Source: a virus (Duplodnaviria; Heunggongvirae; Uroviricota; Caudoviricetes). From it: 64,000 nt of DNA. The translations under genes and the position numbers were made by a program. Below, piece after piece: positions 6,709 through 56,195 of the stretch; position 1 is the first letter of the stretch; each line of letters starts with the position of its first letter. The stretch lies in the IMG/VR virus record IMGVR_UViG_3300028898_000252, positions 29,946 to 93,945 of that record. The stretch is one strand, 5' to 3'. The notes beneath the pieces were generated by a model, which worked only from the letters and a program-made list of their open reading frames with translations, had not been told where the DNA came from and ran no database searches.

Positions 6709-6733
6709 CTTTATCTTTTCTTGAGGAATTTAG

Positions 6734-6804: not shown

Positions 6805-6818
6805 CATATAAACACCAA

Positions 6819-6876: not shown

Positions 6877-6886
6877 GCTTGGTGCT

Positions 6887-6963: not shown

Positions 6964-6982
6964 ATAATAAAACATACAAACG

Positions 6983-7225
6983 AGGAAAGCAAGAAAACTA
7001 GTTTCATTCACATATTGATTTTAGAAAGAAGTTTCCTTATATTGTTCTCCAAAACTTACTCAAAACCATTTCTGATTTTAATGTTTGGTTCCTGCTTCTC
7101 AGACAAGCTGATTATTTCCCAAAAAGGAAATAATGAACTCTCATCTCCACAGGCTTTTGATTCGAAAGTTTTCATTCGAATCGGTTTCCGCGGAACCCGC
7201 AGTACCTTTTAGCGGAGTATGCGAG
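6983..7225. repeat. segmental duplication unit B (paralog of 5455-5700)
   Basis: See unit A. It ends at the 3' end of tRNA-Asp. Confidence 0.6.
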
Positions 7226-7284
7226 AATTGAACTCGCGACGCTCGGATGACAACCGAGTGTTATGACCATTTAACTAATACTCC
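7213..7284 (-). tRNA. tRNA-Asp (anticodon GUC)
   Basis: Acceptor GGAGTAT/ATACTCC is perfect. D-arm GTTA-AATGGTCA-TAAC. Anticodon stem CTCGG/CCGAG, loop TTGTCAT. T-arm GCGAG-TTCAATT-CTCGC. Confidence 0.8.
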
Positions 7285-15213: not shown

Positions 15214-16164
15214 TTACATACTTGATAGGTCGCCAGGATCTTTCCAACAATCTATATCAAGATAAGCAGTAAAATAATCCACCAAGTCTCCAGTATGAAG
15301 GTCTTCTTTTCTCATCCAAAGAAGAAAAGGCTCATCGAAAACAAGAGGATTTTCTTTTGGCCGAATTGATGTTGCGCATCTCGTTACAGCAACAGCCGCG
15401 GCACTTTTAGCTCTTGCACCATGTTCATTTAATTTAAACTTGGTTTGTTGCAGAGCTTGCGACAAACACATTTCTTCTTCTTTCTCAGAAGAATTCAGTT
15501 TTGCCATAAATGACATTCCAAGCAAATAAGATAGATCTGATTCATAGTTTAGATCAATTTTTGGAATTGTTACAGAAGAATAGTTTTGGTATTCTTTTCT
15601 TTTTACGTTAAACATTTCTTCCGCAGAGATTTCTCTCAAGGTTTTAATTTGTTCTGCCGTGAATGGACCTTTTGCAAGGTACATGCTATCCACAAATTTA
15701 TCATTTTTTTGTTTAAGATCAATTCGAGCATAAATTATATCATCAACGAGAAACGTATCGAAAGAATTTGAAATTTTAATTGAGGGATAAGAAGTAACTT
15801 TGCCTTCTTTTGCAACGATCATGTTGGTCGATTGTGCTTTTTCAACCCATTCAACTAATATATCCATAATAGCAGCGGCACCAAAATCTGTTGGATTTTC
15901 AAATTTATCCAACTTGATATCAAATCCATTATCTGATAAAAACTTGTTTATTTCTTCGTGAGAAAACGAGGCAACACATCTCATTTCTTTTTCAGAAAAG
16001 AAATTCAAGTAACCATTTGTAATATATGGTTTATAAATTCCATTTAAGAACTTTCTTTGCTCTGGAATGATATGTTTCCAGGGAGATGTTGCTTTTCCTG
16101 TAAACTCAATTGCAGATTTTAATGCCGCGACAACAGGCGGCATCACAGACACAGATGAACTCAT
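15214..16164 (-). CDS. hypothetical protein
   Basis: 316-aa ORF. Its start overlaps the stop of the upstream gene by 4 nt. Confidence 0.55.
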   Translation of the reverse strand: MSSSVSVMPPVVAALKSAIEFTGKATSPWKHIIPEQRKFLNGIYKPYITNGYLNFFSEKEMRCVASFSHEEINKFLSDNGFDIKLDKFENPTDFGAAAIMDILVEWVEKAQSTNMIVAKEGKVTSYPSIKISNSFDTFLVDDIIYARIDLKQKNDKFVDSMYLAKGPFTAEQIKTLREISAEEMFNVKRKEYQNYSSVTIPKIDLNYESDLSYLLGMSFMAKLNSSEKEEEMCLSQALQQTKFKLNEHGARAKSAAAVAVTRCATSIRPKENPLVFDEPFLLWMRKEDLHTGDLVDYFTAYLDIDCWKDPGDLSSM

Positions 16165-24666: not shown

Positions 24667-25239
24667 ATGAAAAAATACTTTTGCTTTGATACAGAAACAG
24701 GTGGTCTTTCAGAAAGAACAAGTTTGTTAACCCTATACGGGATTATAACAGATGAAAATCTAGAACCCGTAGATTCTATTAGTTTAAAACTAAAACCTTC
24801 AGACGGGGTATTTCTTGTAGAAGGACAGGCATTAGAAATAAACAAAATTAATTTAGATAAACACTCCAGGGTTGCTGACACTTATGAAGTTGGGGCAAAA
24901 AAACTAAAAGATTTTTTGTCAAGACATGTAGAAAACCATACGAGAAAACTTGATATTATTGGCCAGAACGTTATAGAGTTTGATATTCCAAGAGTTAAAA
25001 ACTTTCTCTTGTCTGACGAAGAATTCTCTTTTTATTTTTCGAGAGAAACCAAAGACACAAAGGTGCAAGGAATATTTCTAAAAACACTTGGAATAATTCC
25101 TGGAGATGTTAACTCGTCATTGATAACCCAGCTTAAATTCTTTTTTCCAGATTTAAACCTTGATGGGCACCACGATGCAAAATGGGACACCGAGCACACA
25201 TTAAAACTCTATAAGAAACACGTTTCTATTCTAGAATAG
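24667..25239 (+). CDS. DEDDh 3'-5' exonuclease (DnaQ-like); possible TAG readthrough extension to 25572
   Basis: Exo I CFDTETGGL. Exo II IIGQNVIEFD. Exo III HHDAKWD. The stop is TAG at 25237-25239. The downstream ORF 25273..25572 lies in the same frame with only 11 sense codons between. Confidence 0.75.
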   Translation: MKKYFCFDTETGGLSERTSLLTLYGIITDENLEPVDSISLKLKPSDGVFLVEGQALEINKINLDKHSRVADTYEVGAKKLKDFLSRHVENHTRKLDIIGQNVIEFDIPRVKNFLLSDEEFSFYFSRETKDTKVQGIFLKTLGIIPGDVNSSLITQLKFFFPDLNLDGHHDAKWDTEHTLKLYKKHVSILE

Positions 25240-25547
25240 AGAACAGGTGGTTATTGCCTCTTTACGGAGAAATTGGCGAGCTGTAAGGTGCGGAGTATGT
25301 CAAGCCTAGAACTCCACGATCTAGAATTTGTTTTGGTTCCGCAATCAAACTCCAAAACCAATAATGGCATTGAACAATTTAATGTACTTTTGGAAAATAA
25401 ATTAATTTGTTCGACAATTGAATTGGATGGTAAATGGATCTTGGTTGATACCTTAACGGGGAGAAGTGAAAAGTTTGACTTGCAAGAAAGTCTAGAGAAT
25501 CGAATTCTCGAACTCGCAAACTCCTCAAAGAAAGGAAATCAAAAAAA

Positions 25548-25898
25548 ATGCTTGACACATCTTCTCTCATAAAGGTTGATCCAAGGGGACTAAACACAGA
25601 AAGTTATGATTTAGACTTAATCACAAGTAAAACGTTTTCAAGTGTCCTTTCTGGTCATGCCGCCTCGCTCAAACTTCAAATTGATATTGACCATAAACAA
25701 AATCATGTTGCTTTTGTGGTTGAAGGAAAACCAATTTTGGGTGAACATATGTTAGGTAAAGAAGTTGTTGCCGCGACTTTTATTCCAACAGCAAATGCTT
25801 TGGAGCATTGGAAACTAATCGTTGAAAGACTTATCCACGCTTGGGATTTGATAGCGGCTCCAATTCAAACAAAAGAAGTTCTCAAAGAGAAACTCTGA
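25548..25898 (+). CDS. hypothetical protein
   Basis: 116-aa ORF. Confidence 0.45.
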   Translation: MLDTSSLIKVDPRGLNTESYDLDLITSKTFSSVLSGHAASLKLQIDIDHKQNHVAFVVEGKPILGEHMLGKEVVAATFIPTANALEHWKLIVERLIHAWDLIAAPIQTKEVLKEKL

Positions 25899-26303: not shown

Positions 26304-26726
26304 ATGGCGAAAGTAGAAATCGTAAAACAAGACTTATTTGATGCTTCAAACCTTGTAATAGGTCACGGAGCAAACACAAAAGGTGTTATGGGTGCAGGTA
26401 TAGCTAGAGTTTTTAGAAAGCTATACAAAAACAATTACATTGCTTATCTTGAATCTTGTGTCGCAGGGACATTTTGTCCAGGTGGAATTCTTATTGTAAA
26501 AGAAAAAGAAAGACTGATTGTAAACATTGCATCACAGGATTTCCCTGGTCCTTGTGCAAAACTTGAATGGATTGAACAAGGATTAGCTAAGTGCGCGGCA
26601 AATGAAATTAAATCAATTGCTCTTCCCTGGATTGGGTGTGGAATTGGTGGACTTAAAAGGGAAGACGTTCAAAAAGTTTTAGAAGATTCTCCTCTCGATT
26701 ATATTAAAGTTTGCGAAGTTGACTAA
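26304..26726 (+). CDS. macrodomain protein, DarG/TARG1-like (ADP-ribose hydrolase family)
   Basis: GHGANTKGVMGAGIARVF matches the NTxGVMGKGIA motif. IALPWIGCGIGGL matches the IAxPxIGCGLGG motif of the TARG1/DarG macrodomain clade. 140 aa. Confidence 0.75.
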   Translation: MAKVEIVKQDLFDASNLVIGHGANTKGVMGAGIARVFRKLYKNNYIAYLESCVAGTFCPGGILIVKEKERLIVNIASQDFPGPCAKLEWIEQGLAKCAANEIKSIALPWIGCGIGGLKREDVQKVLEDSPLDYIKVCEVD

Positions 26727-26757
26727 CTGACCAACTCTCTAAAAAGGAAGAAATGAA

Positions 26758-27672
26758 ATGAACCTAAAATCTCAAAAAGAGCTACACGTTGAATTTCTTC
26801 CTTTTCAAAAACTTATAGACTATATTAAAATCGGCGATGCTCTTGGAATGGGATTTGAGTATACTTCAGATAAATTTATAAAAGAAAATCTTTGGAAAGA
26901 AAATACTTTGCCAAAATTTATTCAACATCCATATTGGGCAACCCTTACCCCAGGAATGTATACAGACGATTCTCAAATGAGTATTGCACTTATTAAGTTA
27001 ATGTTAGAAGAAGAAACAACTGAATGGTTTGATGATCGAGTTGTCGGAAGATACTTTCTTTCTGAATTTAAATCAAGCCCTAGACAGGGATATTCGACTG
27101 GTTTGTATAAAGTTTTGTCTACTTCAAAAACAACAAATGAATTTTTGGAACAGATTGCCGCGTTTGGAAAGTCTTCAAAAAATGGCGGCTGTATGAGAGC
27201 TGTCCCAATTGGTTTATTACCTGATTTGGAAATGGTAAAAAAATTTGTAAGATTCCAAGCGGAAACAACCCATTCAGGAACAGGCGTCGATGCAGCAGAA
27301 ATGATTGCTGTTGCGGCATTTGGATTGAAATATAAACTAACAGAAAAAGATAACAAAGTTGATGTTTATGGTTGGGTGAAAAATAACACTTCTTATTTTC
27401 CAGAAATTATCAAAGAACTTAAAAGAGTTGAAGGCTCAAATAATCTCGGTTTATTAACTTCAATTTCAGTGCTAAAATTATTTAGTGAATTTGATTTGAG
27501 GTTAGGATTACATGAACTGATAAGAAGGTGTATTCTTTTAGGTGGAGACACAGATACGGTTGCCGCGATTGCGGCGGGGTTATATGGATGTTGGATACTT
27601 TCAAAAAGTAAAAAACAAAGAAGGGTTTCTTATATAAAAGAAATTAAACCATTGATAAGGTTTGTAAAATGA
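26758..27672 (+). CDS. ADP-ribosylglycohydrolase (ARH/DraG family)
   Basis: GDALGMGFE. YTDDSQMSIAL. GGCMR. GGDTDTVAAIAAGLYG, the classic ARH metal-binding motifs. Confidence 0.85.
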   Translation: MNLKSQKELHVEFLPFQKLIDYIKIGDALGMGFEYTSDKFIKENLWKENTLPKFIQHPYWATLTPGMYTDDSQMSIALIKLMLEEETTEWFDDRVVGRYFLSEFKSSPRQGYSTGLYKVLSTSKTTNEFLEQIAAFGKSSKNGGCMRAVPIGLLPDLEMVKKFVRFQAETTHSGTGVDAAEMIAVAAFGLKYKLTEKDNKVDVYGWVKNNTSYFPEIIKELKRVEGSNNLGLLTSISVLKLFSEFDLRLGLHELIRRCILLGGDTDTVAAIAAGLYGCWILSKSKKQRRVSYIKEIKPLIRFVK

Positions 27673-30511: not shown

Positions 30512-30537
30512 TAAAATAAACAAAGGAACAAAACACA

Positions 30538-30927
30538 ATGACTCACTAGGTAAAAAATAAACTATATGTCGTAACAAGAGAAGACCTTGGACTTCAATAT
30601 CAAATTCCACAAGTGGCACACGCTGTGGCAGAATTCGCACTAAGAAATAAAATAAAGTTTGAGGAATGGAATTCTGGTGGTTTGGGATCTTTGGTAGTTG
30701 TTGCCGCGAAAAACGAAGAACAACTATTTCAATTTAAAGCAAAACTAGAAAAAGAAAATCAAATTTATTATGGATTCTATGAACCAGATATTGGTTATAG
30801 TTTGACTGCTTTAGCAATAGAACCATCGGATAAAGTAAAGAAACTTTGTTCGGGAATGCCTTTAGCGGGCAAACTTTCAAAAGAAACACTAAACCTAAAA
30901 TTAATTTTGACATAGTTGATAAAATGA
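30538..30927 (+). CDS. Pth2-like peptidyl-tRNA hydrolase with in-frame TAG at codon 4 (and TAG at 30913)
   Basis: ATG(30538) ACT CAC TAG(30547) GTA AAA AAT AAA CTA TAT GTC GTA ... gives MTH*VKNKLYVVTREDLGLQYQIPQVAHAVAEF, matching the Pth2 N-terminal strand and SHA motif. No alternative start codon lies between the TAG and the conserved strand. If TAG at 30913 is read through, the gene ends TGA at 30925-30927 in an ATGA overlap with the HD gene. Confidence 0.55.
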
Positions 30928-31316
30928 TGGAAACAGAACAAGCAAAAGATGTTTCTATCCTTCAGCATGGATTACAAGTTTGTGATAAACTTTTTAATTT
31001 AATAATTCCTGCACTTAACTCTGATGTTACTGAAATCAAATTTCCTAATTGGTTTATCGAAAATAAAAGATTTATTCTTGAAAATCTTCCTTCTGAATAT
31101 ATTTTAAGAAAATATGCCATTTTTCATGATGTTGGAAAACCTTATTGTTTAGAGCACGACGAAGAAGGAAAAAGACATTTTCCAAATCATGCTGAATACT
31201 CTTTCCAAAAATATTTGGAGTTGTTTCCAAATGAAAAAGAGATAGCTGAGTTAATAAGAAACGATATGGTCGTTCATATTTTAAAAGATCATGGAGTTGA
31301 AAATTTTTCAAAATAA
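30924..31316 (+). CDS. HD-domain phosphohydrolase
   Basis: AIFHDVGKP and HFPNHAE are HD-domain His/Asp motifs. The start was reassigned to the ATG at 30924. Confidence 0.65.
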   Translation: MMETEQAKDVSILQHGLQVCDKLFNLIIPALNSDVTEIKFPNWFIENKRFILENLPSEYILRKYAIFHDVGKPYCLEHDEEGKRHFPNHAEYSFQKYLELFPNEKEIAELIRNDMVVHILKDHGVENFSK

Positions 31317-31474
31317 AAACTGTATAACTCATTTGGTTGTTGGTCTAGCTGAGATTTACGCTAATGCTGAAATGTTTGGTGGGGTCGAGTCGGAATCTTT
31401 TAAGATCAAGTATAAGCAGCTCGAACGAAGAGGTGGTGCAATTATCTCTGTGCTAAAGCAGAAGAGATAACGCG

Positions 31475-31503
31475 TTGACAGCTTCGCGGAGGTTGCTTAC
31501 ACT
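31475..31503 (+). promoter_or_regulatory. sigma70-type promoter for the suppressor tRNA
   Basis: -35 TTGACA (31475-31480), 17-nt spacer, -10 TACACT (31498-31503). The tRNA 5' end at 31510 sits at the predicted start site. Confidence 0.6.
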
Positions 31504-31509
31504 TCTCGC

Positions 31510-31581
31510 GTTTCGCTAGTTCAGCGGTAGAACGGCGGGCTCTAAACCTGCAAGTCATAGGTTCGATTCCTATGCGGAGCA
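31510..31581 (+). tRNA. amber suppressor tRNA (anticodon CUA, reads UAG)
   Basis: Acceptor GTTTCGC/GCGGAGC with two G:U pairs. D-arm GTTC-AGCGGTA-GAAC. Anticodon stem GCGGG/CCTGC, loop CTCTAAA with U33 and A37. T-arm ATAGG-TTCGATT-CCTAT. Discriminator A. No CCA encoded. Confidence 0.8.
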
Positions 31582-31610
31582 CAAACAAAAACATAAAAAG
31601 GAAAACAAGA

Positions 31611-32525
31611 ATGCAAACAAGACTCTTCTGTGGTTTGGCGATTGCTGTGTTGGCTGCCGCGTGTGAAACAGTATCTCCTGGGGAAGTTGCCGTTTTAGTT
31701 GATACTGGAACAGTTAAAGGCGTATATCCTCCAGGACTTTATTACGATGGCCCAATGATGGAATTTCACAAACTTTCAACGAGAGCTCAATCATTTGATA
31801 TGATTGGTGCCCCAACTCAAAATCAAAACCATGAACGTTCTGGTGAAGGTACTGTTACTGTTTTAACTCGGGACCAATTAAGTGTTGGTCTCGATTGCAC
31901 GGTTCAATTTCACTTAAACAGCGACCACGCCTTACCTGTGTTTATTAAGTTTGGCGAAAACTATGCACAAACAGTTGTTCACACTCCTGTCAGAGCTGCG
32001 GTAAGGGATAGCGCAGGTAGGTTTAACGCTCTCGATCTTTCAAACCGAAGAGAAGAGTTACAACAAACCCTCGAATTAGAAATTCGAAATAAGATTCATA
32101 CACTGTTGTCTCAGCAAAGAGTTTCAACAAATGCGATCATCTTGGATTCTGTTTTGATTCGAAATATTGATCTACCAAATTCTCTCGATGAAAGTATTGT
32201 GGCATTGCAGCGAGAAAGAATGCAAACGCAACAGAGACAACAAGCTGCCTTAACCGCGCAGCAAGATGCTGTGCGGCAAATGGCAGACATTCGAGGACAA
32301 TCAGAACGAAATATTTTAGCAGCGGAAACTGCCGCTAGAACAAGACGAATCGAATCAGAATCTATTGCCGCGGCAAACAGAACAATTGCCGCTTCACTTA
32401 CTCCAGAACTTTTGCGTCTTCGAGCAATCGAGGCACAAAAAGAAGTCTTGGGAAGTAATCAGACTCGAACGGTATTTATGCCTCCAAATATGTCACTTTT
32501 CAACCTTGGAAATATCCAACAATAA
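31611..32525 (+). CDS. SPFH/band-7 (HflC/K-like) lipoprotein, GC-rich gene
   Basis: Lipobox LAAAC after a signal peptide. The motif run GEVAVLVDTG..V.G.Y.PGL.Y..P, ...TRDQL.V.LD..V.FHL and ...VRAAVRDSAG fits an SPFH domain. GC content is much higher than the neighbouring genes. The track start 31572 overlaps the tRNA and was moved to 31611. Confidence 0.7.
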   Translation: MQTRLFCGLAIAVLAAACETVSPGEVAVLVDTGTVKGVYPPGLYYDGPMMEFHKLSTRAQSFDMIGAPTQNQNHERSGEGTVTVLTRDQLSVGLDCTVQFHLNSDHALPVFIKFGENYAQTVVHTPVRAAVRDSAGRFNALDLSNRREELQQTLELEIRNKIHTLLSQQRVSTNAIILDSVLIRNIDLPNSLDESIVALQRERMQTQQRQQAALTAQQDAVRQMADIRGQSERNILAAETAARTRRIESESIAAANRTIAASLTPELLRLRAIEAQKEVLGSNQTRTVFMPPNMSLFNLGNIQQ

Positions 32526-33546: not shown

Positions 33547-34182
33547 ATGAAAACCATAAAACTGAAAAACAATGAATTGATTCCTGAATACTATACAGGA
33601 ATTGTTGAATGGGAACCTGGAACAAAATGTTGGTTCAAAGAAGGAAAAAGACATAGAATAGATGGACCAGCAAACGAATACTTTGACGGATCAAAAGAAT
33701 GGTGGATTGAAGGAAAACTTCACAGAATAGATAGCCCCGCTGTTGAATATGCAGATGGAACAAAATGTTGGTTCAAAGAAGGAAAATATCATCGAACAGA
33801 TGGTCCTGCTGTTGAATATGCAGATGGAACAAAACAATGGTGGGTTGAAGGGAAACTTCATAGATTTGATGGTCCTGCTATTGAATGGGCAAATGGATCA
33901 AAATATTGGTATAAAGATGGATTACTTCACAGATTCGATGGTCCTGCTTGCGAATATAAAGATGGATTAAAAGAATGGTATGTTGATAATAAACTCTATT
34001 CCACTTTTGAATTGGAAATCTATGTCGAAAAACTTATTTTCCTCGGGAAAGAAAAAGGCAACCATAACCTGTGTTGGTTAAAGTTTTTAACAGAAAATCA
34101 AGGAATCAAAGAGTTCCCTATTATTTCAGGAATGGAAAAAAATTTAATATTTAAAGAAATTTTCGTTTACTTGGAAATATAA
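33547..34182 (+). CDS. MORN-like repeat paralog family protein (5 repeats)
   Basis: Tandem 23-aa repeats WFKEGK.HR.DGPA.EY.DGTK plus the C-terminal module IFLGKEKGNHNLCWLKFLTENQGIKEFPIISGME. Confidence 0.7.
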   Translation: MKTIKLKNNELIPEYYTGIVEWEPGTKCWFKEGKRHRIDGPANEYFDGSKEWWIEGKLHRIDSPAVEYADGTKCWFKEGKYHRTDGPAVEYADGTKQWWVEGKLHRFDGPAIEWANGSKYWYKDGLLHRFDGPACEYKDGLKEWYVDNKLYSTFELEIYVEKLIFLGKEKGNHNLCWLKFLTENQGIKEFPIISGMEKNLIFKEIFVYLEI

Positions 34183-34377
34183 AAAATGAAAACTTTCTTC
34201 GTTATAGTTGATGATAAACCAGATTCTCAAATACAAACAAAGAATGTGTTTGAAGGATATAAAGAAGTTTTAAAAAAAGAAACAAAAGGTAAAATTCAAC
34301 TTATTGAAAAATCTTATTTTTTGGTGTGGTCTAAACAAAAAATAAAATAACAAAAGGATATAAACAAAAAAACAAAA

Positions 34378-35046
34378 ATGACAAATGCGATGTTGGTGTT
34401 AAAAACAAATAATTCAAAACTTGGTGGTGTTGCCGCGACTTATAGTTCAATTGATTCTTCTTGCCCGACTAGTTGCGCTTTAAAAGATAATGGATGTTAT
34501 GCTCAACTTGGTTTTGTTGGAATTCATACATCAAAACTAAATAAAAAGAAATCAACTCCAAGAGAAGTTGCAAGAGAAGAAGCAAAACAAATTAAACAAG
34601 CTATTAAAGAAGAAAAGAATACAAAACCATTGCGGTTGCACGTTGCAGGAGATTGCCGCACAAACGAAGCAGCAGCCATATTAGCCGAGGCAACAAAAGA
34701 ATGGGGCTATCCAGTATGGACTTATACACACGCCTGGAAAGATGTTTCTCGTTCTAGTTGGGGCAATAAGGTTTCTGTTCTTGCCTCGGTTGACAACATA
34801 AAAGAAATAAAATCGGCAAGAAGAAAAGGTTATGCTCCTGCTATCATTGTTGATAAATTTTTATCAAAAAAAGCATATGAGTTTAATGGATTTAAATTAA
34901 TTCCTTGTCCAAATCAAACTCATGAAAATATAACTTGTGAAAAGTGTAAACTTTGTTGGAACGATAAAAAACTTAAAACTCTAAATGCTGTTATTGGATT
35001 CGAAGCTCATGGTGCAAAAAGAAAATCTCTGCCAGTGATAAAATGA
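34378..35046 (+). CDS. hypothetical protein with the N-terminal Cys motif SCPTSC...GCYA
   Basis: 222 aa embedded in the MORN array. Not a MORN paralog. Confidence 0.5.
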   Translation: MTNAMLVLKTNNSKLGGVAATYSSIDSSCPTSCALKDNGCYAQLGFVGIHTSKLNKKKSTPREVAREEAKQIKQAIKEEKNTKPLRLHVAGDCRTNEAAAILAEATKEWGYPVWTYTHAWKDVSRSSWGNKVSVLASVDNIKEIKSARRKGYAPAIIVDKFLSKKAYEFNGFKLIPCPNQTHENITCEKCKLCWNDKKLKTLNAVIGFEAHGAKRKSLPVIK

Positions 35047-35453
35047 AAACAAAAGAAGACACAATAAAGATTATAGAATCTTCGGATGGAACAAAACAAT
35101 GGTATAAAGAAGGAAAATGTCATCGAGAGGATGGACCCGCGATTGAATGGGCAGGAGGGGCGAAAGAATGGTATATTGGAGGAAAACGCCACAGAATAGA
35201 TGGACCAGCTTTTGAAAATCCAGACGGAACAAAAGAATGGTGGGTTGGTGGAAAAGAATACTCGGACACAATTTATGTAAGAAACAAAATTTTTCTTGGA
35301 AAAGAAAAAGGAAAGTTTGGGATTGAGTGGTTAAAGTTTTTAACAGAAACAGGAATTGAAGAATATCCTCTTATTCCTGGTATGAATTATGAATTTGTTC
35401 AAAGATATGACCTCCAATCATTTTTAACTACGCAGGAGAATGTTTTAAAATGA
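35043..35453 (+). CDS. MORN-like repeat paralog family protein
   Basis: Repeats WYKEGKCHREDGPAIEW and WYIGGKRHRIDGPAFEN plus the LKFLTETGIEEYPLIPGM module. ATGA overlap with the upstream gene. Confidence 0.7.
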   Translation: MKTKEDTIKIIESSDGTKQWYKEGKCHREDGPAIEWAGGAKEWYIGGKRHRIDGPAFENPDGTKEWWVGGKEYSDTIYVRNKIFLGKEKGKFGIEWLKFLTETGIEEYPLIPGMNYEFVQRYDLQSFLTTQENVLK

Positions 35454-35884
35454 AACATCTTAAACTAAAAGATAATGAAAAAATTCCCAAACATTTTACA
35501 GGAATTGTTGAATGGGCAAGTGGATTGAAAGAATGGTTTAAAAAAGGAAAACATCATCGACTTGATGGACCTGCAATTGAATGGGTAAATGGAGATAAAC
35601 AATGGCTTAAAGAAGGAAAAACTCATAGAGTAGACGGACCAGCTATTGAACTTTCAGGTGGATATAAAGAATGGTGGATTGATAATAAATCAATAAAAAA
35701 AGAAATCGATATTTCAAATAAAATTTTTCTTGGAAAAGAAAACGGAAAGTATAAGATTGAGTGGTTAAAGTTTCTAACAGAAACAGGAATTGAAGAATAT
35801 CCTCTTGTTCCTGGTATGCCTCCTTATCAATTTAGAATTTTTAAAGACATATCTCTCGACGAACTCTTAAAAGTAGGTGTTTGA
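35450..35884 (+). CDS. MORN-like repeat paralog family protein
   Basis: Same repeat and C-terminal module. ATGA overlap. Confidence 0.7.
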   Translation: MKHLKLKDNEKIPKHFTGIVEWASGLKEWFKKGKHHRLDGPAIEWVNGDKQWLKEGKTHRVDGPAIELSGGYKEWWIDNKSIKKEIDISNKIFLGKENGKYKIEWLKFLTETGIEEYPLVPGMPPYQFRIFKDISLDELLKVGV

Positions 35885-36495
35885 TGGAAACAATTGATCT
35901 ATGGACAAAAACCACACAATTTCCTAAAAACTTTACAGGAATTGTTAAACGTGAAAACTTTCTTGAGATTTATTATAAAAATGGAAGTATTCATCGTAAA
36001 GATGGCCCCGCTTATATATCAAAATATATGTACAATAATCTAAAAAATTTTACTTATATTTGGTATAAAAAAGGAAAAAAACATAGAATTGGTGGTCCAG
36101 CGGTTGAAATTTGGGATGGTTCAAAAGAATGGTGGGTTAATAATAAAAAACATAGAATAGCTGCTCCTGCGGTTGTTGGAGTAGATGGATATAGAGAATG
36201 GTGCATTAATGGAAAATGGCACAGAACAGATGGGCCAGCTATTGAATTTGAAAACGGAGATAAATATTGGTATTTAAATAATAAACTCTGTTTTGAAAAA
36301 ACGGACATACCTATTCTTTTAAAAAAGAATATGTTTCTCAATATGGAAAGAGGAAAATATGATTTGTTTTGGTTAAGGTTCTTAACAGAAGACCAAGGAA
36401 TAAAAGAATTTCCAATGATTCCTGGAATACGTGAATTCATGTTGTCTATGGACTCTGAATTAAAAGATTATTTTGATGAGTGTGGATGGGTATAA
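35881..36495 (+). CDS. MORN-like repeat paralog family protein
   Basis: Four repeats plus the LRFLTEDQGIKEFPMIPGI module. ATGA overlap. Confidence 0.7.
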   Translation: MMETIDLWTKTTQFPKNFTGIVKRENFLEIYYKNGSIHRKDGPAYISKYMYNNLKNFTYIWYKKGKKHRIGGPAVEIWDGSKEWWVNNKKHRIAAPAVVGVDGYREWCINGKWHRTDGPAIEFENGDKYWYLNNKLCFEKTDIPILLKKNMFLNMERGKYDLFWLRFLTEDQGIKEFPMIPGIREFMLSMDSELKDYFDECGWV

Positions 36496-37034
36496 ACATG
36501 GAAACAATAAAGATTTTATCAGGGACTCAACTTCCTAAAAACTTTACAGGGATTGTGGAGTATCCGTGTAATGTTAAGATTTATTATAAAAATGGAAGTA
36601 TTCATCGTAAAGATGGCCCTGCTTATACTCGAAATGAAATCGACCCATTTGGATACGATAGATATGTGAAATGTTGGTATAAAAACGGAAAACTTCATAG
36701 AATAGATGGTCCAGCTGTTGAACAATCCTACTTCAATTTAAAAGAATGGTATATTAATGGAAAACATCCAATAGACAGACCAGCCCAATCAAGATACGGA
36801 AGTTTTTATTGGTTTTATGAAAAAAGATATTGGCATATAAATGACTTAATTCATTTGTTTGATAAAGGAATTTTTCTTGGAGGAGAAAAAAGAAAATATG
36901 GAATTACCTGCTTTTTGTTTCTAACAGAACATAATGGAATTCGAGAATTTCCCATAATGGGCGGAATGAAACAAGAACTTCTTAATCTTTGGAAATTTGA
37001 TCTGGTTTTAAAACTAGAGGAGTATAAACTATAA
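36480..37034 (+). CDS. MORN-like repeat paralog family protein (divergent)
   Basis: Repeats YYKNGSIHRKDGPAY and WYKNGKLHRIDGPAVE plus the C-terminal EFPIMGGM module. Confidence 0.65.
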   Translation: MWMGINMETIKILSGTQLPKNFTGIVEYPCNVKIYYKNGSIHRKDGPAYTRNEIDPFGYDRYVKCWYKNGKLHRIDGPAVEQSYFNLKEWYINGKHPIDRPAQSRYGSFYWFYEKRYWHINDLIHLFDKGIFLGGEKRKYGITCFLFLTEHNGIREFPIMGGMKQELLNLWKFDLVLKLEEYKL

Positions 37035-37038
37035 CATC

Positions 37039-37509
37039 ATGACAAACCTAAATGTAGTAGTAAGAAAACGTGGTAGACCACCTGGAAGTAAAAACAAGAA
37101 AACCGCGGGCGATGTGAAACCTAGTCCCGCGGTTATTGCCTCGGCGGTCGACTCAGGAATAATTCCAAAAAAGCGAGGGAGACCACCGAAGAATCCCCAA
37201 GCAGCCGCGGCACCAAAACCAGAATTTATCCCACAAGAGATTCCAGTTTTAGAATCTAAATTGGTTTCGATTATAAATAAACCAAAAGAAGAGACCAAGG
37301 TTCAAGAACCGAAAAGTTATAAACAGTTTGAAGTTGGAGATAGAGTTAAAAAAATAACAACAGGAGATGTTGGATATGTTAAAGTACACAAGCCAGGTAC
37401 CAGGTATGTTTACGTTAATTGGGGTGGGGATTATATGGATTTTGTTGCGGCTGACTTACTAGAACTAGTAAACATACCAGCTTCAAAAAGGCAAAAAAAG
37501 AATGAGTGA
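37039..37509 (+). CDS. AT-hook DNA-binding protein
   Basis: Two AT-hooks, KRGRPPGSKNKK and KRGRPPKNPQ, then a C-terminal SH3/KOW-like segment. Confidence 0.65.
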   Translation: MTNLNVVVRKRGRPPGSKNKKTAGDVKPSPAVIASAVDSGIIPKKRGRPPKNPQAAAAPKPEFIPQEIPVLESKLVSIINKPKEETKVQEPKSYKQFEVGDRVKKITTGDVGYVKVHKPGTRYVYVNWGGDYMDFVAADLLELVNIPASKRQKKNE

Positions 37510-37515
37510 TTGTGA

Positions 37516-37953
37516 ATGGAAACTTTAAAACTAAAACTTAACGAATATATTCCTGACAACTTTACAGGAATTGTTGAAGCTGAAAATGGAGCCATAGTAT
37601 GGCTTAAAAATGGAAAAAAACATCGAGAAAACGGGCCAGCAGCTGAGTGGGCAAATGGAAACAAATATTGGTATATTGAAGGAAAACGCCACAGAATAGA
37701 TGGTCCAGCAGTTGAACATCCAGATGGATATAAAGAATGGTGACTCGACGGAATTCGCTATACAAACAATAACTTTTCCACCGAAGGAAAGATTTTTTTA
37801 GGAACTGAGATCGGGAAATATGGACTTGAATGGTTAAAGTTCATGACAGAAAATAAAATCGAAGAATTTCCTATTATTCCAGGTCGGGAATTAAAAATAG
37901 TTCATTCTTTTACGGTTGAAGAATATAAAACGTTTATAGAAAGCAACAAATGA
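37516..37953 (+). pseudogene. MORN-like paralog interrupted by in-frame TGA at a conserved Trp (37741-37743)
   Basis: ...GYKEW-TGA-LDGIRY... Intact paralogs read KEWW at this position, so a TGG to TGA change is likely. The frame continues to the C-terminal module and a TGA at 37951-37953 that overlaps the next start. Confidence 0.6.
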
Positions 37954-38294
37954 AAACTTTAAAACTAAACTTTGGAGATGTATTTCCCGACAATTATACG
38001 GGAATTGTTGAAGTTTTTAGCGGAACAAAAGAATGGTGGGTTGAAGGTAAACTTCATAGAACGGACGGACCAGCAATTGAATGGGGCGAAAACATAACAT
38101 CTTGTTATATAGATGAATTTGTGTACACAGAGGAAATCTTAGATTCTTTAATTAAAGAATCGATATTTCTTGGAATTGAAAAAGGCAAGCACGGTCTTGA
38201 GTGGATTAAGCTTTTAACAGAAAATGGAGGAATTTGTGAAATCCCTAATTTTAAAAAACTGAAAGAATCTGATATAAAGAAAGGTATAATATAA
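37950..38294 (+). CDS. MORN-like repeat paralog family protein (single repeat)
   Basis: WWVEGKLHRTDGPAIEW plus the LEWIKLLTENGGICEIP module. Confidence 0.6.
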   Translation: MKTLKLNFGDVFPDNYTGIVEVFSGTKEWWVEGKLHRTDGPAIEWGENITSCYIDEFVYTEEILDSLIKESIFLGIEKGKHGLEWIKLLTENGGICEIPNFKKLKESDIKKGII

Positions 38295-47314: not shown

Positions 47315-48226
47315 ATGAAACCAGCTATAACAGAAAACGGCAAATTCAAAAAGAAACAGAAAGCAATAAATCAATCTTATGGTGGAGAAGAAGATGAAAA
47401 GCTTTTTATGGAATACCACGCAAGTAAAGTATACGACCAAAAAGGCAACCTAGAAAAAAGCAATGAAAAACTTAGAAACCAATTAACCCTCAGAAATCAA
47501 AAACTTGTTAATACTTTTATTTCCCTTATTGGAAATAAAAACAAAGTAGTGGTGAGAAAATATAAAGAAGATCTATTTCAAGAAGGTTTAATTGGATTAT
47601 CAAAGGCAATAGAACATTTTGATCCAACAAGAGGAATAAGGTTTTCGACATATGCAGGACACTGGGTTCTCCAGGCAATTACTTCTTATATCGCAAAACA
47701 ACAATTCGTTGTTGCCATCCCTACCCAGCTTAGATTAGCGTCGAATAAAATTCTTTCTTTTATGAAAGAGAATAAAAAAGAAACAACAGAAGAAATTTCT
47801 TTTGAAGAAAAAGAAGAACTTAAAAAACAATATAAAATACCAGAAAAAATATATCTTGATGCTGTAAAAGAAATAAAATCGGGATTTAATTCTTCAAACG
47901 TTTACAACACAATGGATAAAAGAATTGTTTATTTTGAACAGCCTTTGACGACTATTGCCTCGTCTTCTGCTCAGACAGATTCTTCATTTACTTATGAGCG
48001 GTTTTTAAAAGATAATGACGTTAATGTTTCTTATAACGAACCAATTTCATTATTAAACGAAACCCAAAGTTTAATTTCAACAAGTGAAGATGTGGTTTCT
48101 GCTGTCCATAAAACACTGCTAGAACTTGATCCACTTAAAAGATTAATTTTAATATTGAGGTTCATGGGAATAAAAAATATAGAAAACGAAAAGGAAATAG
48201 AATCAATTGGAACTCAAACAATATGA
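47315..48226 (+). CDS. sigma-70 family RNA polymerase sigma factor (regions 2 to 4.1 recognisable)
   Basis: GLIGLSKAIEHFDPTRGIRFSTYAGHWVLQAITSYI matches sigma70 region 2.1-2.4. The C-terminus LKRLILILRFMGI..EIESIGTQ resembles region 4.1. The ORF stops before a region 4.2 recognition helix. Confidence 0.8.
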   Translation: MKPAITENGKFKKKQKAINQSYGGEEDEKLFMEYHASKVYDQKGNLEKSNEKLRNQLTLRNQKLVNTFISLIGNKNKVVVRKYKEDLFQEGLIGLSKAIEHFDPTRGIRFSTYAGHWVLQAITSYIAKQQFVVAIPTQLRLASNKILSFMKENKKETTEEISFEEKEELKKQYKIPEKIYLDAVKEIKSGFNSSNVYNTMDKRIVYFEQPLTTIASSSAQTDSSFTYERFLKDNDVNVSYNEPISLLNETQSLISTSEDVVSAVHKTLLELDPLKRLILILRFMGIKNIENEKEIESIGTQTI

Positions 48227-53102: not shown

Positions 53103-54056
53103 ATGAATCTTGAAGACTTCCTGAAAAACTTAAATGTTAATAATGACTTCTATCGAAGTATAGATTTTCTCTCAAAACCAAAATATGAAGAACTAAAACT
53201 TTCGTTAGCAAGTAATAAAAGTTTTTCTGATTATTCAAGAGAATTTAATTGGTTTACAATATATTCTTCTATCAACATAGAGAAATATAAATCCGAAACA
53301 AAAACATTTGTTCCTGCAAGAAAATATGGAAATAGACTCTATACCTGGAGACTAAACCAAATGGACTATTACAGGGGCGATAAATATTCAGAGCCGATAA
53401 AAATTGGTTCTGAATTTTTTTTGTTTTATAATGAATACGGAAAGCCAACAAGAGCTCTACTCGAAAATAAACTTATTGAAAATGTAGGTTATAACTCTTT
53501 TAAACTTACAGACGAAAATCAATATTCTCAAACATTAACAGAACAAGATATTGAAAATGCAAAAAATGGATACTTTCAATATTTAGAAATTTTTGATTCA
53601 AAACCTTTTAAAGCAAAAGAACTTGAAAATTTTAATTTTATCTTTTATGGAAATTCTCCAATAATAGAAAAAAACGAGATTATTTTTTGGGCAGAAAGAA
53701 ATGGATTTGTAAATCATTCAAAGAAACCAAAACAGAACAAAAAGAATGTTCTTGTTTGTTTATCAGAATTTCCTTATTCAAGAAAAGCCTTGTTGAAAAC
53801 AAAAATTCCGCAAGGTTTAAAACATAACACGGCGAGAATTTCTTATAAAGATTTCATTAACATTGCTTATAACATTGCTTATAAACAAGATTTTGTTTTC
53901 TCCTGGAATTCTTTAAAACGAGAAAGAGTTAAACTTTTAACCGAGTATAAATCTTTTTTTGAGGATGAAAAGAATTTTAATAAAAATCAAAGGCGGCTAA
54001 CAAAACAAATTGTTGAAGAACTTGAAATTCAAATTGAAGAATTAAACTTGTTTTAA
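53103..54056 (+). CDS. hypothetical protein
   Basis: 317-aa ORF. Overlaps the first minus-strand MORN gene by 15 nt. Confidence 0.5.
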   Translation: MNLEDFLKNLNVNNDFYRSIDFLSKPKYEELKLSLASNKSFSDYSREFNWFTIYSSINIEKYKSETKTFVPARKYGNRLYTWRLNQMDYYRGDKYSEPIKIGSEFFLFYNEYGKPTRALLENKLIENVGYNSFKLTDENQYSQTLTEQDIENAKNGYFQYLEIFDSKPFKAKELENFNFIFYGNSPIIEKNEIIFWAERNGFVNHSKKPKQNKKNVLVCLSEFPYSRKALLKTKIPQGLKHNTARISYKDFINIAYNIAYKQDFVFSWNSLKRERVKLLTEYKSFFEDEKNFNKNQRRLTKQIVEELEIQIEELNLF

Positions 54057-54470
54057 AAAAGTAAACAGTATTTCAAAGTTTTTATATTGTTCCATTCCAG
54101 AAATAATAGGAAACTCTTGGATTCCTCTTTCTGTTAAGAACCTTATCCAATCAAGATCATATTTGCCTTTTTCTTTGCCAAGAAAAATACCAGTATTTAA
54201 CCAGTGTTCCAAATCTTTATAACTTAGATATACACTGTCTATATACCAAAGTTTGGTACCACCAGGCATTTCAATCGCTGGACCATCTATTCGGTGCCGT
54301 TTGTCTTCAATCCACCATTCTTTATCTCCATCTGAATGTTCAACAGCTGGTCCATCTTCTCGATGAATTTTACCCTCTTTATACCAAGCTTTAGTTCCAT
54401 TATAAAATTCAATAACACCAGTATAGTTTTTAGGAATCTCGGCAGATGAATTTAGTTTCAAAACTTCCAT
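54042..54470 (-). CDS. MORN-like repeat paralog family protein
   Basis: Repeats WYKEGKIHREDGPAVEH and WWIEDKRHRIDGPAIEM plus LDWIRFLTERGIQEFPIISGME. Confidence 0.7.
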   Translation of the reverse strand: MEVLKLNSSAEIPKNYTGVIEFYNGTKAWYKEGKIHREDGPAVEHSDGDKEWWIEDKRHRIDGPAIEMPGGTKLWYIDSVYLSYKDLEHWLNTGIFLGKEKGKYDLDWIRFLTERGIQEFPIISGMEQYKNFEILFTFLKQV

Positions 54471-54480
54471 TTATAGCTTT

Positions 54481-54837
54481 TTAAGCTCCAAGTTTTTCGA
54501 AAATAACTTTAAATTCTTCGTCCTCTCTCATTCCAGGAATAATAGGAAACTCTTGGATTCCTCTTTCTGTTAAGAACTTTAACCAATCAAGGTTATGGAT
54601 GCCTTTTTCTATCTTTAAAAAAAGAGTATTTTCTATTAATTGATTTAATGTAAATGGATGATACATGAAATCATCTATATACCAATACTTGTCTCTATTT
54701 CGATATTCACAAGCAGGGCCATCTATTCGGTGAAAATTTCCATCTTTATACCAATACTTAATTCCTGATTCATATTCTGCAATCCCTGTATAGTTCCTAG
54801 GGATACATTCATTACCTTTTAATTTAATCGTTTCCAT
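54481..54837 (-). CDS. MORN-like repeat paralog family protein
   Basis: Same repeat and C-terminal module. Confidence 0.7.
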   Translation of the reverse strand: METIKLKGNECIPRNYTGIAEYESGIKYWYKDGNFHRIDGPACEYRNRDKYWYIDDFMYHPFTLNQLIENTLFLKIEKGIHNLDWLKFLTERGIQEFPIIPGMREDEEFKVIFEKLGA

Positions 54838-54840
54838 CTT

Positions 54841-55003
54841 TATTTTTCCTTTTTCTTCTTATTTTATATCAAAAACCCTGCAATTTCCAAACACATGAAT
54901 TCAAAAAAGGCAATTTGCGGAATTTCCCTAGATATTTTATACTTTCTCCTAGATGGAAAGTCAAAAATTTTTTCAACATTTCCCATCTTTTTTGGAGAAG
55001 AAT
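54841..55003. repeat. conserved upstream intergenic cassette, copy A
   Basis: ttttatatcaaaaaccctgcaatt...gaatttccctagatattttatactttctcctagatggaaagtc...aagaattcaagtt. Near-identical to 57808-58009. Shares its first half with 56196-56384. Confidence 0.55.
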
Positions 55004-55381
55004 TCAAGTTTTGAATAAATCTATTAAAAACAGTTTTAATTCTTGAGAAGCATCTCTAGATTCTTCCATTCCTTTAATATAAGGAAACTCTATAATCCCT
55101 TCATTTTCTGTTAAAAACTTTAGCCAATCAAGGTTATGGATGCCTTTTTCTTTTCCAAGAAATATATATTTTTTATAATATCTTTCTAAAGTTGTAACAT
55201 TGTATGGCATACTGCTAATCCACCATTCTTTATTTCCGTTATCTATTTCAACAGCTGGACCATCTTCTCGATGCCATTTTCTTTCTTTGTACCAAAATTT
55301 AGCTTTCATTGCTTTATGTTCAATAATTCCTGTAAAGTTTTCAGGAACTTCTGTAAACGAATTCACTTCTATTATGTTCAT
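55004..55381 (-). CDS. MORN-like repeat paralog family protein
   Basis: Same repeat and C-terminal module. Confidence 0.7.
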   Translation of the reverse strand: MNIIEVNSFTEVPENFTGIIEHKAMKAKFWYKERKWHREDGPAVEIDNGNKEWWISSMPYNVTTLERYYKKYIFLGKEKGIHNLDWLKFLTENEGIIEFPYIKGMEESRDASQELKLFLIDLFKT

Positions 55382-55731
55382 GGTGAAATGATCTCATCCA
55401 TTCTTGTTTTCAGTAAAGGACTCACATCCTCCATCCCAGGAATAACAGGAAACTCTTTTATTCCTTGGTCTTTTGTCAAAAACTTTAACCAATATAGGTT
55501 ATATTTGCCCTTTTTGGTTTCAAGAAAAAGGGCAGAAATAAACATTTCTTCCAAATCATATATTTCATATCTAACTCCATCAATAAACCATTCTTTTGAA
55601 CCAACTCTCCATTCAATCGCAGGTCCATCTTCTCGATGCCTTTTTCCATTTTTAAACCATTCTTTGTCTCCATAATTGGTTGGAATCATTCCTGTAAAGT
55701 TTTGTCCAACTGTTAACCCTATTATGCTCAT
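55378..55731 (-). CDS. MORN-like repeat paralog family protein
   Basis: Same repeat and C-terminal module. 4-nt overlaps with neighbours. Confidence 0.7.
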   Translation of the reverse strand: MSIIGLTVGQNFTGMIPTNYGDKEWFKNGKRHREDGPAIEWRVGSKEWFIDGVRYEIYDLEEMFISALFLETKKGKYNLYWLKFLTKDQGIKEFPVIPGMEDVSPLLKTRMDEIISP

Positions 55732-56195
55732 AACCCAATTTCCTTCATCTCTTTTTCTGTTAAAAATTCTTTAAGCAAAGAAAAGAACAGTCTCTCTGTT
55801 TCCATTCCTTTAATATAAGGAAACTCTTGAATTCCTTGATTTACTGTCAAAAACTTTAGCCAATATAAATCATATTTTCCTTTTTCTTTTCCAAGAAAGA
55901 TCGAATCTTTAAAAAGCATTTTTAAAATCATGGAGTGATAGAAAGATCCTTCGAGATGCCATTCTTTTGTTCCGTTTGCGTATTCACAAGCGGGACCATC
56001 TAATCTATGACATTTTCCATCAATCCACCATTCTTTATCTCCATTAGCCTGTTCAATGGCTGGCCCATCTACTCTATGGGGAAACCCATCCTGAAACCAT
56101 ATTTTTGTTCCTAGTGGATATTCAACAATCCCTGTAAAGTTTTCAGGGCACAACTCATCAACTTTTAATTTAAGCGTTTCTGTTTTCGTTTTCAT
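55728..56195 (-). CDS. MORN-like repeat paralog family protein
   Basis: Three repeats plus YWLKFLTVNQGIQEFPYIKGME. Confidence 0.7.
   Translation of the reverse strand: MKTKTETLKLKVDELCPENFTGIVEYPLGTKIWFQDGFPHRVDGPAIEQANGDKEWWIDGKCHRLDGPACEYANGTKEWHLEGSFYHSMILKMLFKDSIFLGKEKGKYDLYWLKFLTVNQGIQEFPYIKGMETERLFFSLLKEFLTEKEMKEIGL

Follow-up and report, generated by a model that had tools for sequence, protein, structure and literature searches.

Suppressor tRNAs are carried by crAss-like and Lak phages, in which TAG is reassigned to glutamine under genetic code 15 (Borges et al. bioRxiv 10.1101/2021.08.26.457843; Peters et al. PMC9523058). Suppressor tRNAs with the anticodon CUA are also carried by the standard-code phages XacN1, RsoM2USA and Summit, and the genome papers found no target for them. 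Jumbo phages encode in addition PTH2, a protein of the archaeo-eukaryotic Pth2 type (PF01981) for which a role in ribosome rescue or tRNA repair has been proposed (Iyer et al. 2021, PMC7824862; RaK2 ORF188, PMC3622015). Here we analyse a stretch of 64,000 nucleotides (nt) of a tailed phage (IMG/VR record IMGVR_UViG_3300028898_000252, positions 29,946 to 93,945; hereafter the window), which encodes a tRNA(CUA) and, upstream of it, a gene joining a PTH2 domain to an HD domain (PTH2-HD) behind an in-frame TAG. Comparison with related loci makes it likely that tRNA(CUA) and the stop-gated PTH2(-HD) gene form a conserved two-part module that serves gene-specific programmed suppression.

The tRNA has the following position.

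31510 to 31581, plus strand: tRNA(CUA), amber suppressor, 72 nt, on which ARAGORN, Rfam and the minimum-free-energy fold concur.

ARAGORN identified 13 tRNAs in the window, 12 on the minus strand at 923-7284 and one on the plus strand at 31510-31582 with the anticodon cta. The plus-strand placement proposed in the initial annotation, remote from the minus-strand array, is thereby borne out. The Rfam tRNA covariance model RF00005 gave 60.1 bits for 31510-31581 (gathering score 29), the 12 other window tRNAs spanning 39-75 bits and two orthologues of tRNA(CUA) scoring 57.9 and 64.0 bits. The minimum-free-energy fold is a clean cloverleaf with stems of 7, 4, 5 and 5 base pairs (bp) and G1-C72 as the first pair; the anticodon occupies 31542-31544, the discriminator A73 lies at 31581 and no CCA is encoded. 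Direct reading of the sequence gave the anticodon loop C32 U33 C34 U35 A36 A37 A38 at 31540-31546 (CUCUAAA) on a stem of 5 bp (GCGGG/CCUGC), so that the hand-folded loop CTCTAAA, with U33 and A37, is upheld. The D-loop has 7 nt with GG (AGCGGUA), the variable loop 5 nt (AAGUC) and the T-loop reads TTCGA; U8, A14, G18G19, G26, G46, C48, G53, T54 T55 C56 and A58 are all canonical.

All strain variants and syntenic orthologues keep the CUA anticodon. Among seven aligned strain variants the sole change in the tRNA is U2 to C2, by which a U.G pair becomes C-G. Syntenic tRNA(CUA) genes were found in two relatives whose SPFH proteins, encoded downstream of the tRNA, are 93% and 66% identical to that of the window, and the tRNA bodies are merely 64-85% identical. 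All four stems vary widely among the syntenic orthologues and related phage tRNA(CUA)s with pairing preserved, and compensatory (double) changes were observed in 16 of the 21 stem pairs among orthologues and family members while the anticodon loop stayed constant. An exact 40-mer taken from the tRNA had no match in IMG/VR. Judged by these sequence patterns, tRNA(CUA) is, as first proposed, a phage-encoded amber suppressor; it is real, under selection and no pseudogene. ARAGORN labels it 'Pyl' because the program so names any tRNA with a CUA anticodon. The anticodon is what the phage tRNA and tRNA-Pyl have in common. In tRNA-Pyl the anticodon stem measures 6 bp and the variable loop 3 nt, the D-loop is shortened and lacks G18G19, and the T-loop is non-canonical; the 5-bp anticodon stem, 5-nt variable loop, GG-bearing D-loop and TTCGA of the phage tRNA rule out that identity. 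No Pyl genes were found among the annotated neighbours of the tRNA.

The proposed target of the suppressor is the PTH2-HD gene, whose parts are as follows.

30523 to 30528, plus strand: Shine-Dalgarno-like AAGGAA, 5' of the PTH2 leader ATG (the 18 nt upstream read ACAAAGGAACAAAAC).
30538 to 30549, plus strand: PTH2 leader ATG ACT CAC TAG (M-T-H-UAG), with the amber codon as codon 4 at 30547-30549.
30550 to 30912, plus strand: open reading frame (ORF) of the PTH2 domain (PF01981), ending at TAG 30913 / TGA 30925 in the window strain.
30924 to 31316, plus strand: ORF of the HD domain, a gene call of 130 amino acids in strain locus L001, fused to PTH2 in loci L003, L212 and L213.
31291 to 31470, plus strand: C-terminal HD fragment with the conserved motif ...MFGG.ES.SFKIKYK..., split off by a 2-nt A-run difference near 31310.

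The start of the gene in the window reads AAAGGAA-(10 nt)-ATG ACT CAC TAG GTA AAA AAT AAA CTA TAT GTC GTA ACA AGA GAA GAC, in translation M-T-H-UAG-V-K-N-K-L-Y-V-V-T-R-E-D. The 93% relative has M-T-H-UAG-V-Q-N-K-L-Y-I-V-T-R-E-D and the 66% relative M-M-UAG-N-S-I-N-Q-N-K-L-Y-V-V-T-R-K-D. The leader is identical in the strain loci L001-L006 and in the activated-sludge contig L219; across the stop, the window, L003 and L219 read MTH-stop-VKNKLYVVTRED, L212 reads MTH-stop-VQNKLYIVTRED, and L213 and L220 read MM-stop-NSINQNKLYVV. The leader of L212, ATG ACC CAC TAG, differs from that of the window by a synonymous ACT/ACC change.

Between the leader TAG and the first beta-strand of the domain (KLYVVTRED) there is no ATG, GTG or TTG. 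When the residues after the TAG were included, the Pfam PTH2 score rose from 21-24 to about 30-34 bits (cut-off 23). The PF01981 match then spans profile positions 2-106/112 of 115 (for the window copy, 30.1 bits and positions 2-106 from residue 4), and the archaeal Pth2 structures 2zv3 (E=3e-5) and 1wn2 of the PDB align from query residue 3-4. As these matches begin near the TAG, the PTH2 domain starts 3-6 codons past the stop (three in the window). Since the only start led by a ribosome-binding site (RBS) lies upstream of the TAG and none lies between, a full PTH2 domain would need the UAG to be decoded. In two relatives the gene is called as a single ORF of 286 amino acids from an assumed GTG start, with the HD domain and a weak, N-terminally truncated PTH2 match.

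We searched for similar arrangements in a composite of 132 kb, made up of the window, 9 kb to its left and 59 kb to its right. A 172,135-bp JGI/IMG-VR contig begins inside the window near 60.7 kb, and the genome therefore measures at least about 233 kb. The scan asked for an RBS-led ATG, a stop within 15 codons and then at least 100 stop-free codons. It returned one TAG case, PTH2, no TAA case and one TGA case, the last with a normal ATG ten codons on. A wider scan of the composite found no excess of TAG-bounded genes. The initial annotation had spoken of 'at least programmed readthrough', and this survives in a narrower form, as one gene with a start-proximal TAG that is conserved and whose stop co-varies with the anticodon, and not as wider recoding. 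Its remark that the tRNA lies beside genes carrying TAG in frame applies to PTH2 (codon 4, 30547-30549) and not to the downstream SPFH gene (31611-32525), which has no in-frame TAG.

In the window strain and in four to five other assemblies PTH2-HD is split into three ORFs. Comparison of window positions 30905 and 31310 with L003:9000-9860 and L212:2992-3852 traced the split to two length differences, of 1 nt in a T-run (near 30905) and of 2 nt in an A-run (near 31310), net -3; the middle segment, read in another frame, still encodes conserved protein. The split may represent gene fission, decay or programmed frameshifting. We rejected the view of the split gene as a pseudogene with 'in-frame TAGs', as TAG 30913 is just the first out-of-frame stop past the 1-nt homopolymer difference. 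Separate PTH2 and HD ORFs are also present in the phages GAP32, ME3, Arash and RsoM2USA.

The PTH2-HD family comprised 604 database matches, mostly on very large contigs, and 14 lineages were examined first, with their DNA fetched through the PTH2-HD protein. All 14 have a leader of 1-10 codons that ends with an in-frame stop before PTH2, and the stop at the junction of leader and domain is TAG in 13 and TGA in one. In 12 of the 14 no canonical start separates the stop from beta-strand 1; a purine stands at position +4 after the stop in 13, and most have Shine-Dalgarno-like motifs 5' of the leader ATG. A suppressor tRNA lies within 3 kb of PTH2 in 10/14 lineages. Its anticodon is CUA in all nine TAG-gated lineages that have such a neighbour, and the single TGA-gated lineage (L225, leader MSIDQNIHEA-TGA) has an adjoining tRNA(UCA). 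Leaders and neighbouring suppressors of ten of the carriers are given below.

64%-GC contig (L222): MTAHT-stop; PTH2 38% identical; tRNA(CUA) 1.1 kb off.
364-kb contig (L223): MSQSELKEA-stop; two tRNA(CUA).
L224: MSQNELKEA-stop; tRNA(CUA) 9 nt past the gene.
464-kb contig (L226): MKTNHLDHT-stop; no suppressor within 3 kb.
Tenacibaculum phage pT24: MK-stop; no suppressor in the locus read.
Cronobacter phage GAP32: MAQ-stop; annotated Sup-tRNA 2.3 kb off.
Yersinia phage fHe-Yen9-04: MSH-stop; no suppressor in the locus read.
Ralstonia phage RsoM2USA: ML-stop (PTH2, in an unannotated gap) and MKS-stop (HD gene); no suppressor in the locus read, one CUA tRNA reported genome-wide.
Acinetobacter phage ME3: MT-stop; tRNA 'anticodon CTA' 450 nt upstream.
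Salmonella phage Arash: ML-stop; tRNA(CUA), labelled Phe in GenBank.

The GC content of the gated lineages ranges from 29% to 64%, protein identity falls to about 31-38%, and the codons flanking the stop diverge; between L223 and L224 the leader carries the synonymous changes CAA/CAG and TTA/TTG. A reciprocal test, starting from seven IMG/VR loci retrieved by tRNA(CUA) sequence alone, found PTH2 within about 0.5 kb of the tRNA in four, of which one is gated (MK-stop) and three are ungated.

These comparisons bear on two other explanations of the leader stop. According to the first, the leader is an ordinary regulatory mini-ORF that ends with UAG, akin to the bar minigenes of lambda, PTH2 is re-initiated at a non-canonical codon and the suppressor is unrelated. 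Very short ORFs, as known from lambda bar and pth, cause drop-off of peptidyl-tRNA, the substrate of Pth, and some lineages have a codon near-cognate for initiation (ATA, ATC, CTG) right after the stop, both of which would suit such an arrangement. We nevertheless regard it as very unlikely, as the first post-stop codon is a non-initiator (GTA, GTT or AAC) in 8/14 lineages, the stop is TAG in 13/14 and not the genome-typical TAA, the lone TGA case is paired with a tRNA(UCA), and suppressors occur within 3 kb in 10/14 although they are rare among phage tRNAs. The second explanation holds that the tRNA is a neutral or pre-adaptive step toward recoding, as in the model of Borges et al., and that the TAG of PTH2 is a tolerated nonsense mutation; the fragmentation of PTH2-HD in the window strain could then mean decay. 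We judge this highly improbable given that the same junction stop is kept in 14 lineages from 29% to 64% GC with divergent flanking codons, that the PTH2 domain downstream of it is intact and conserved, and that the stems of the tRNA co-vary.

Several GenBank records of these loci deserve mention. In GAP32 (L228, NC_019401.1, about 290.1-291.0 kb) and fHe-Yen9-04 (L229) the separate HD ORF has a second conserved in-frame TAG in the context ...LISELD(T/S)G-stop-GD..., where GenBank has several tiny hypothetical coding sequences. The 'tRNA-Phe' of Arash (L233 2807-2881, OQ632216.1) has the anticodon CTA according to ARAGORN and is a probable annotation error. The PTH2 ORF of RsoM2USA (L231, about 548-880, MG752970.1) lies in the unannotated gap from RsoM2USA_93 to _92, again a probable annotation error.

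The genome that carries the module is T4-like with a GC content of 34%. It has rIIA and rIIB (~29% identity to T4-like phages), and no GenBank phage matched 29000-34000 in a megablast search. Many metagenomes contain the same phage, and a 99%-identical fragment is present in an activated-sludge metagenome. The rightward contig encodes a tail sheath (PHROG 23, 8.5e-36), a second sheath-like protein, a tail tube, a major head protein (PHROG 138, 1.9e-69), a T4-type portal (2e-58) and a GroEL-like chaperonin, and the head, portal, sheath and tube genes are uninterrupted under the standard code. ORFs cover 93.6% of the composite when it is read in the standard code; recoding of TAG gives 94.1% and recoding of TGA, as a control, 93.8%; pairs of ORFs that merge across one stop number 4 for TAG, 8 for TGA and 15 for TAA. 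For the short IMG/VR loci rich in tRNAs, coding density proved too noisy and was left unused. As far as the 132 kb shows, genome-wide reassignment of TAG is not supported. The stop-codon reassignment put forward in the initial annotation thus finds no support here, there being no gain in coverage with TAG as a sense codon, few TAG merges and intact structural genes. A code-15-like reassignment restricted to late or lysis genes outside the part read, as in crAss-like and Lak phages, seems extremely improbable. Low GC (34%), depleted TAG stops and a suppressor tRNA are the pre-conditions described by Borges et al., and at least 100 kb of the genome lies beyond the 132 kb. However, head, portal, sheath, tail tube and chaperonin are intact in the standard code, the three coverage values are as given above, TAG-merged ORFs are fewer than in the controls, and no gene for a release factor or an aminoacyl-tRNA synthetase was seen in the 132 kb.

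TAG ends 6 of the 167 ORFs (3.6%), against a compositional expectation of 19-25% (binomial p about 2e-8), the 19% being derived from out-of-frame trinucleotide frequencies; this null is lenient because TAG is generally the rarest bacterial stop. Back-up stops beyond the TAG-ended genes are no closer than elsewhere (median 13 codons vs 10 for TAA/TGA), and the readthrough extensions of these genes (5, 6, 20, 21, 6 and 110 codons) are patternless, like the TAA/TGA controls. One candidate fusion by readthrough, of the TAG-ended ORF 24667-25239 with 25273-25572, was rejected, as the linker encodes junk and the downstream gene is provided with an RBS and ATG of its own. The scarcity of TAG stops has a bearing on the possibility that the suppressor acts mainly in trans, on UAG stops of the host or of competitors during takeover, with the gated PTH2 as a secondary, compensating device. 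With its own TAG stops nearly purged (6/167), the phage would be largely immune to its suppressor; PTH2 adjoins tRNA(CUA) even where it is ungated (L023, L025, L026), and the promoter is of an early, host-sigma70 type. On the other side, damage to the host would be mild because laboratory strains of E. coli tolerate amber suppressors well, the null for TAG depletion is generous given the general rarity of this stop in bacteria, and the back-up stops after TAG are no closer. This explanation, which overlaps with that of a gene-specific module and does not exclude it, is in our view possible but rather unlikely.

The promoter and the gene downstream of the tRNA were located as follows.

31475 to 31480, plus strand: -35 hexamer TTGACA; CGTTGAC is invariant in the window, L003, L212 and L213.
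31498 to 31503, plus strand: -10 hexamer TACACT; TATAGT / TATACT in relatives, with the GC-rich discriminator TCTCGC after it.
31611 to 32525, plus strand: SPFH/Band-7 lipoprotein gene (Pfam PF01145, 92 bits).

The layout is TTGACA, a 17-nt spacer, TACACT, 6 nt and then G1 of the tRNA. Taken alone, the pattern is near chance, with 49 sites against 42.7 expected in a scan of 12 kb, and a stricter pattern is also near chance (8 sites vs ~9 expected in 122 kb). Among the seven aligned strain variants, both hexamers are invariant and the 17-nt spacer has three substitutions, and the 93% and 66% relatives retain CGTTGAC and TAYAST around a rewritten spacer; conservation of the hexamers with a variable spacer holds in four lineages. 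Moreover, 6 of the 8 pattern matches have a GC-rich spacer, an uncommon trait at a genomic GC of 34%, where 0.85 are expected and none of 200 simulations reached 6. This defines a class of promoters with TTGAC(A/T), a GC-rich spacer of 16-18 nt, TAnAnT and a GC-rich upstream flank, several of which lie in intergenic gaps; in the window its sites are 8659(-), 19178(-), 21940(-), 24123(-), 31475(+) and 42025(+). From their sequence these are probably early phage promoters served by host sigma70. The sigma70-type promoter that had been assigned to the tRNA is accordingly present, with conserved hexamers and as a member of a class above chance. Its predicted start, G31510 (7 nt past the -10 hexamer), falls on +1 of the tRNA in the window, as had been claimed, and also in the 93% relative. 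The claim does not extend to the 66% relative, where an 11-nt insertion gives a leader of ~10 nt; in L213 and L220 the tRNA begins 17 nt past the -10 hexamer. A leaderless transcript is therefore no conserved feature.

No terminator was found between the end of the tRNA and the SPFH gene (31582 to 31611), and the two are therefore probably co-transcribed. The SPFH gene is syntenic with the module in close relatives only and is absent beside it in L223-L226 and in the GenBank phages; it is outside the conserved module. A search of IMG/VR found no relatives of the SPFH protein.

As to the charging of the suppressor, natural bacterial tRNAs that share its body plan and have an amber-accessible anticodon are Lys(CUU) (11, A73), Trp (9, G73) and Gln (2, G73). 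The closest natural tRNAs overall are Lys(CUU), with 70-73% identity, A73 and G1-C72, and a single substitution separates the loop CUCUAAA from CUCUUAA, the loop of Lys(CUU); inside the phage the closest is tRNA-Lys(UUU) (68-74%). Among amber suppressors of E. coli, CUA tRNAs with A73 tend to be charged by lysyl-tRNA synthetase and those with G73 by glutaminyl-tRNA synthetase. Because of its A73 the window copy leans toward lysine, and we suggest with low confidence that this is the amino acid it carries. A single charging identity for all module tRNAs was rejected, as eight of them carry the discriminator A73 and three G73, and their first base pairs differ. Such variation fits a UAG at a non-conserved junction where the inserted residue would be immaterial. 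The other tRNAs of the phage comprise the array at 923-7284 on the minus strand (Leu-UAG, Gln-UUG, Lys-UUU, Thr, Met, Gly, Asn, Glu-CUC, Ala, Pro, Glu-UUC and Asp) and, farther left, Ser-AGA (L016 17728-17815). The phage tRNA-Gln has A73, whereas those of E. coli and B. subtilis have G73. CCA is encoded in 5 of the 13 window tRNAs, the suppressor not among them.

Taken together, we propose that the module works as follows. Host RNA polymerase would start at TTGACA-17-TACACT, within 1-2 nt of G1 of the tRNA, and read on into the SPFH gene. The tRNA would then be released, receive its CCA and be charged by a host synthetase, its body being most like Lys(CUU). Ribosomes starting at ATG 30538 would reach UAG at codon 4, where release factor 1 (RF1) alone would yield a tripeptide and no PTH2. 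A charged tRNA(CUA) at this UAG would insert its amino acid and allow translation to continue into the PTH2 domain. As tRNA(CUA) would compete with RF1, the output of PTH2 would be gated by suppressor activity and proportional to it. The suppressor should cost the phage little, since the phage keeps to the standard code and has nearly eliminated TAG stops. The purpose we favour, which is conjecture, is that PTH2-HD keeps pace with the level of suppression by recycling peptidyl-tRNA or rescuing ribosomes. In such a feed-forward scheme, suppression elsewhere, which would fall chiefly on host mRNAs because the phage avoids TAG, would lead to readthrough, stalled ribosomes and dropped peptidyl-tRNA, and PTH2-HD would clear them.

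Several points weigh against a conserved gene-specific module. Readthrough and charging are both steps that we infer from sequence. The ordinary-ATG PTH2 (MQKLYVLVRTD...) of the IMG/VR loci L023, L025 and L026 (41-45% GC) lies ~0.5 kb from tRNA(CUA), so gating is not universal; the same adjacency argues for a functional link between PTH2 and suppressor beyond regulation. In L225, ME3 and XacN1 a possible independent start, ATG or GTG, lies between the stop and the domain. No suppressor tRNA was found in the flanks of 2.5-3 kb to which the reading of L226, pT24 and fHe-Yen9-04 was confined. The lineages share ancestry, and 14/14 therefore does not represent 14 independent events. In the window strain the two homopolymer differences split PTH2-HD, so that the HD part may be impaired there. 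Lastly, the analysis covers 132 kb of a genome of at least 233 kb, with at least 100 kb beyond.

A variant of the proposal, which we consider unlikely, is that suppressor and UAG-gated PTH2-HD form a translational sensor circuit whose gate opens when the state of host translation changes. The suppressor would be a deliberately poor substrate of a host synthetase, with a Lys-like body and a non-Lys anticodon, in competition with RF1. Defence nucleases that cleave tRNAs and so deplete the normal substrates of the synthetase, or impaired termination, would trigger the circuit, and an enzyme for ribosome rescue or tRNA repair (PTH2 plus HD phosphohydrolase) would be turned on exactly when needed. 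If this were true, the 'orphan' suppressors of standard-code jumbo phages would be regulatory RNAs of an anti-defence or repair pathway and not agents of code change.

Other genes were observed in the course of the analysis. The GroEL/Cpn60-like chaperonin of the rightward contig has 884 amino acids and contains an intein-like insert with a LAGLIDADG homing endonuclease (L217 439-3093, minus strand; IMGVR_UViG_3300028826_000180 at 49.7-52.4 kb), and a 610-amino-acid protein with a GIY-YIG/HNH endonuclease region adjoins the major head gene (L216 5511-7343). L003 carries a TnpB / IS605 OrfB (Cas12f-like TNB) gene at 1779-2900, near a divergent region (window about 24.2 kb), which is absent from the window and the other strains and represents a mobile element inserted in that strain. 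Small paralogous genes in two tandem arrays (window 33547-38000 and 54000-64000; L013/L028 1-3200) encode a multi-copy family of about 125-210 amino acids with a weak DUF6745 match and shared 14-mers such as AAAGAATGGTGGAT. A set of host-manipulation genes (window 26304-27672, 15214-16164 and 47315-48226; L016 11474-11983) comprises a macro domain adjoining an ADP-ribosylglycohydrolase, a serpin, an ART-PolyVal ADP-ribosyltransferase and a phage sigma factor (Sigma70_r2, 2.8e-12).

Among known systems, a distant analogy is offered by prfB, the gene of release factor 2, which has an early in-frame UGA that is passed by a +1 frameshift and senses its own product. Both cases place a 5'-proximal in-frame stop in a translation-related gene and set a release factor against alternative decoding. 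In the PTH2 module, by contrast, the frame is unchanged, a dedicated suppressor tRNA would decode the stop and the product is a predicted peptidyl-tRNA hydrolase. The closest counterparts are Xanthomonas phage XacN1, RsoM2USA, GAP32 ('tRNA-OTHER/Sup-tRNA') and ME3 ('anticodon CTA'), which likewise have canonical CUA tRNAs in large standard-code genomes and also bear stop-gated PTH2/HD genes; the GAP32 tRNA shares D-arm and anticodon loop with the window tRNA (about 82% identity over 55 nt). Unlike the Sup tRNAs of jumbo phages as reported, the window tRNA has a proposed conserved target, and it differs from them in having its own conserved promoter and in lying outside the tRNA array. The PTH2/HD genes of jumbo phages are truncated, fragmented or unannotated in their GenBank versions, and neither Iyer et al. 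2021 (PMC7824862) nor the RaK2 paper (PMC3622015) mentions the leader stop or a link to a suppressor tRNA. We found no earlier description of a suppressor paired with a stop-gated PTH2 in the searchable literature, which omits much subscription material. If the proposed module is correct, it would explain a class of orphan suppressor tRNAs in standard-code jumbo phages and correct the annotation of PTH2/HD in GenBank records such as those of GAP32, fHe-Yen9-04, RsoM2USA and Arash. The proposal is open to direct tests, as tractable hosts (Cronobacter, Salmonella, Acinetobacter, Yersinia and Ralstonia) support several of the carriers in culture.

With the code-15 phages the window phage has in common a phage-encoded tRNA(CUA), low GC, depleted TAG stops and a suppressor that would control particular genes. 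In those phages, many late and lysis genes have multiple in-frame TAGs and coding density goes up under code 15, whereas here one gene in 132 kb has a TAG, at codon 4, and the structural genes use the standard code. Recoding of stop codons by a phage suppressor is known, and here it would be reduced to a single conserved regulatory codon; if the module holds, phage recoding can be limited to one such codon, possibly the minimal precursor of a full code change.

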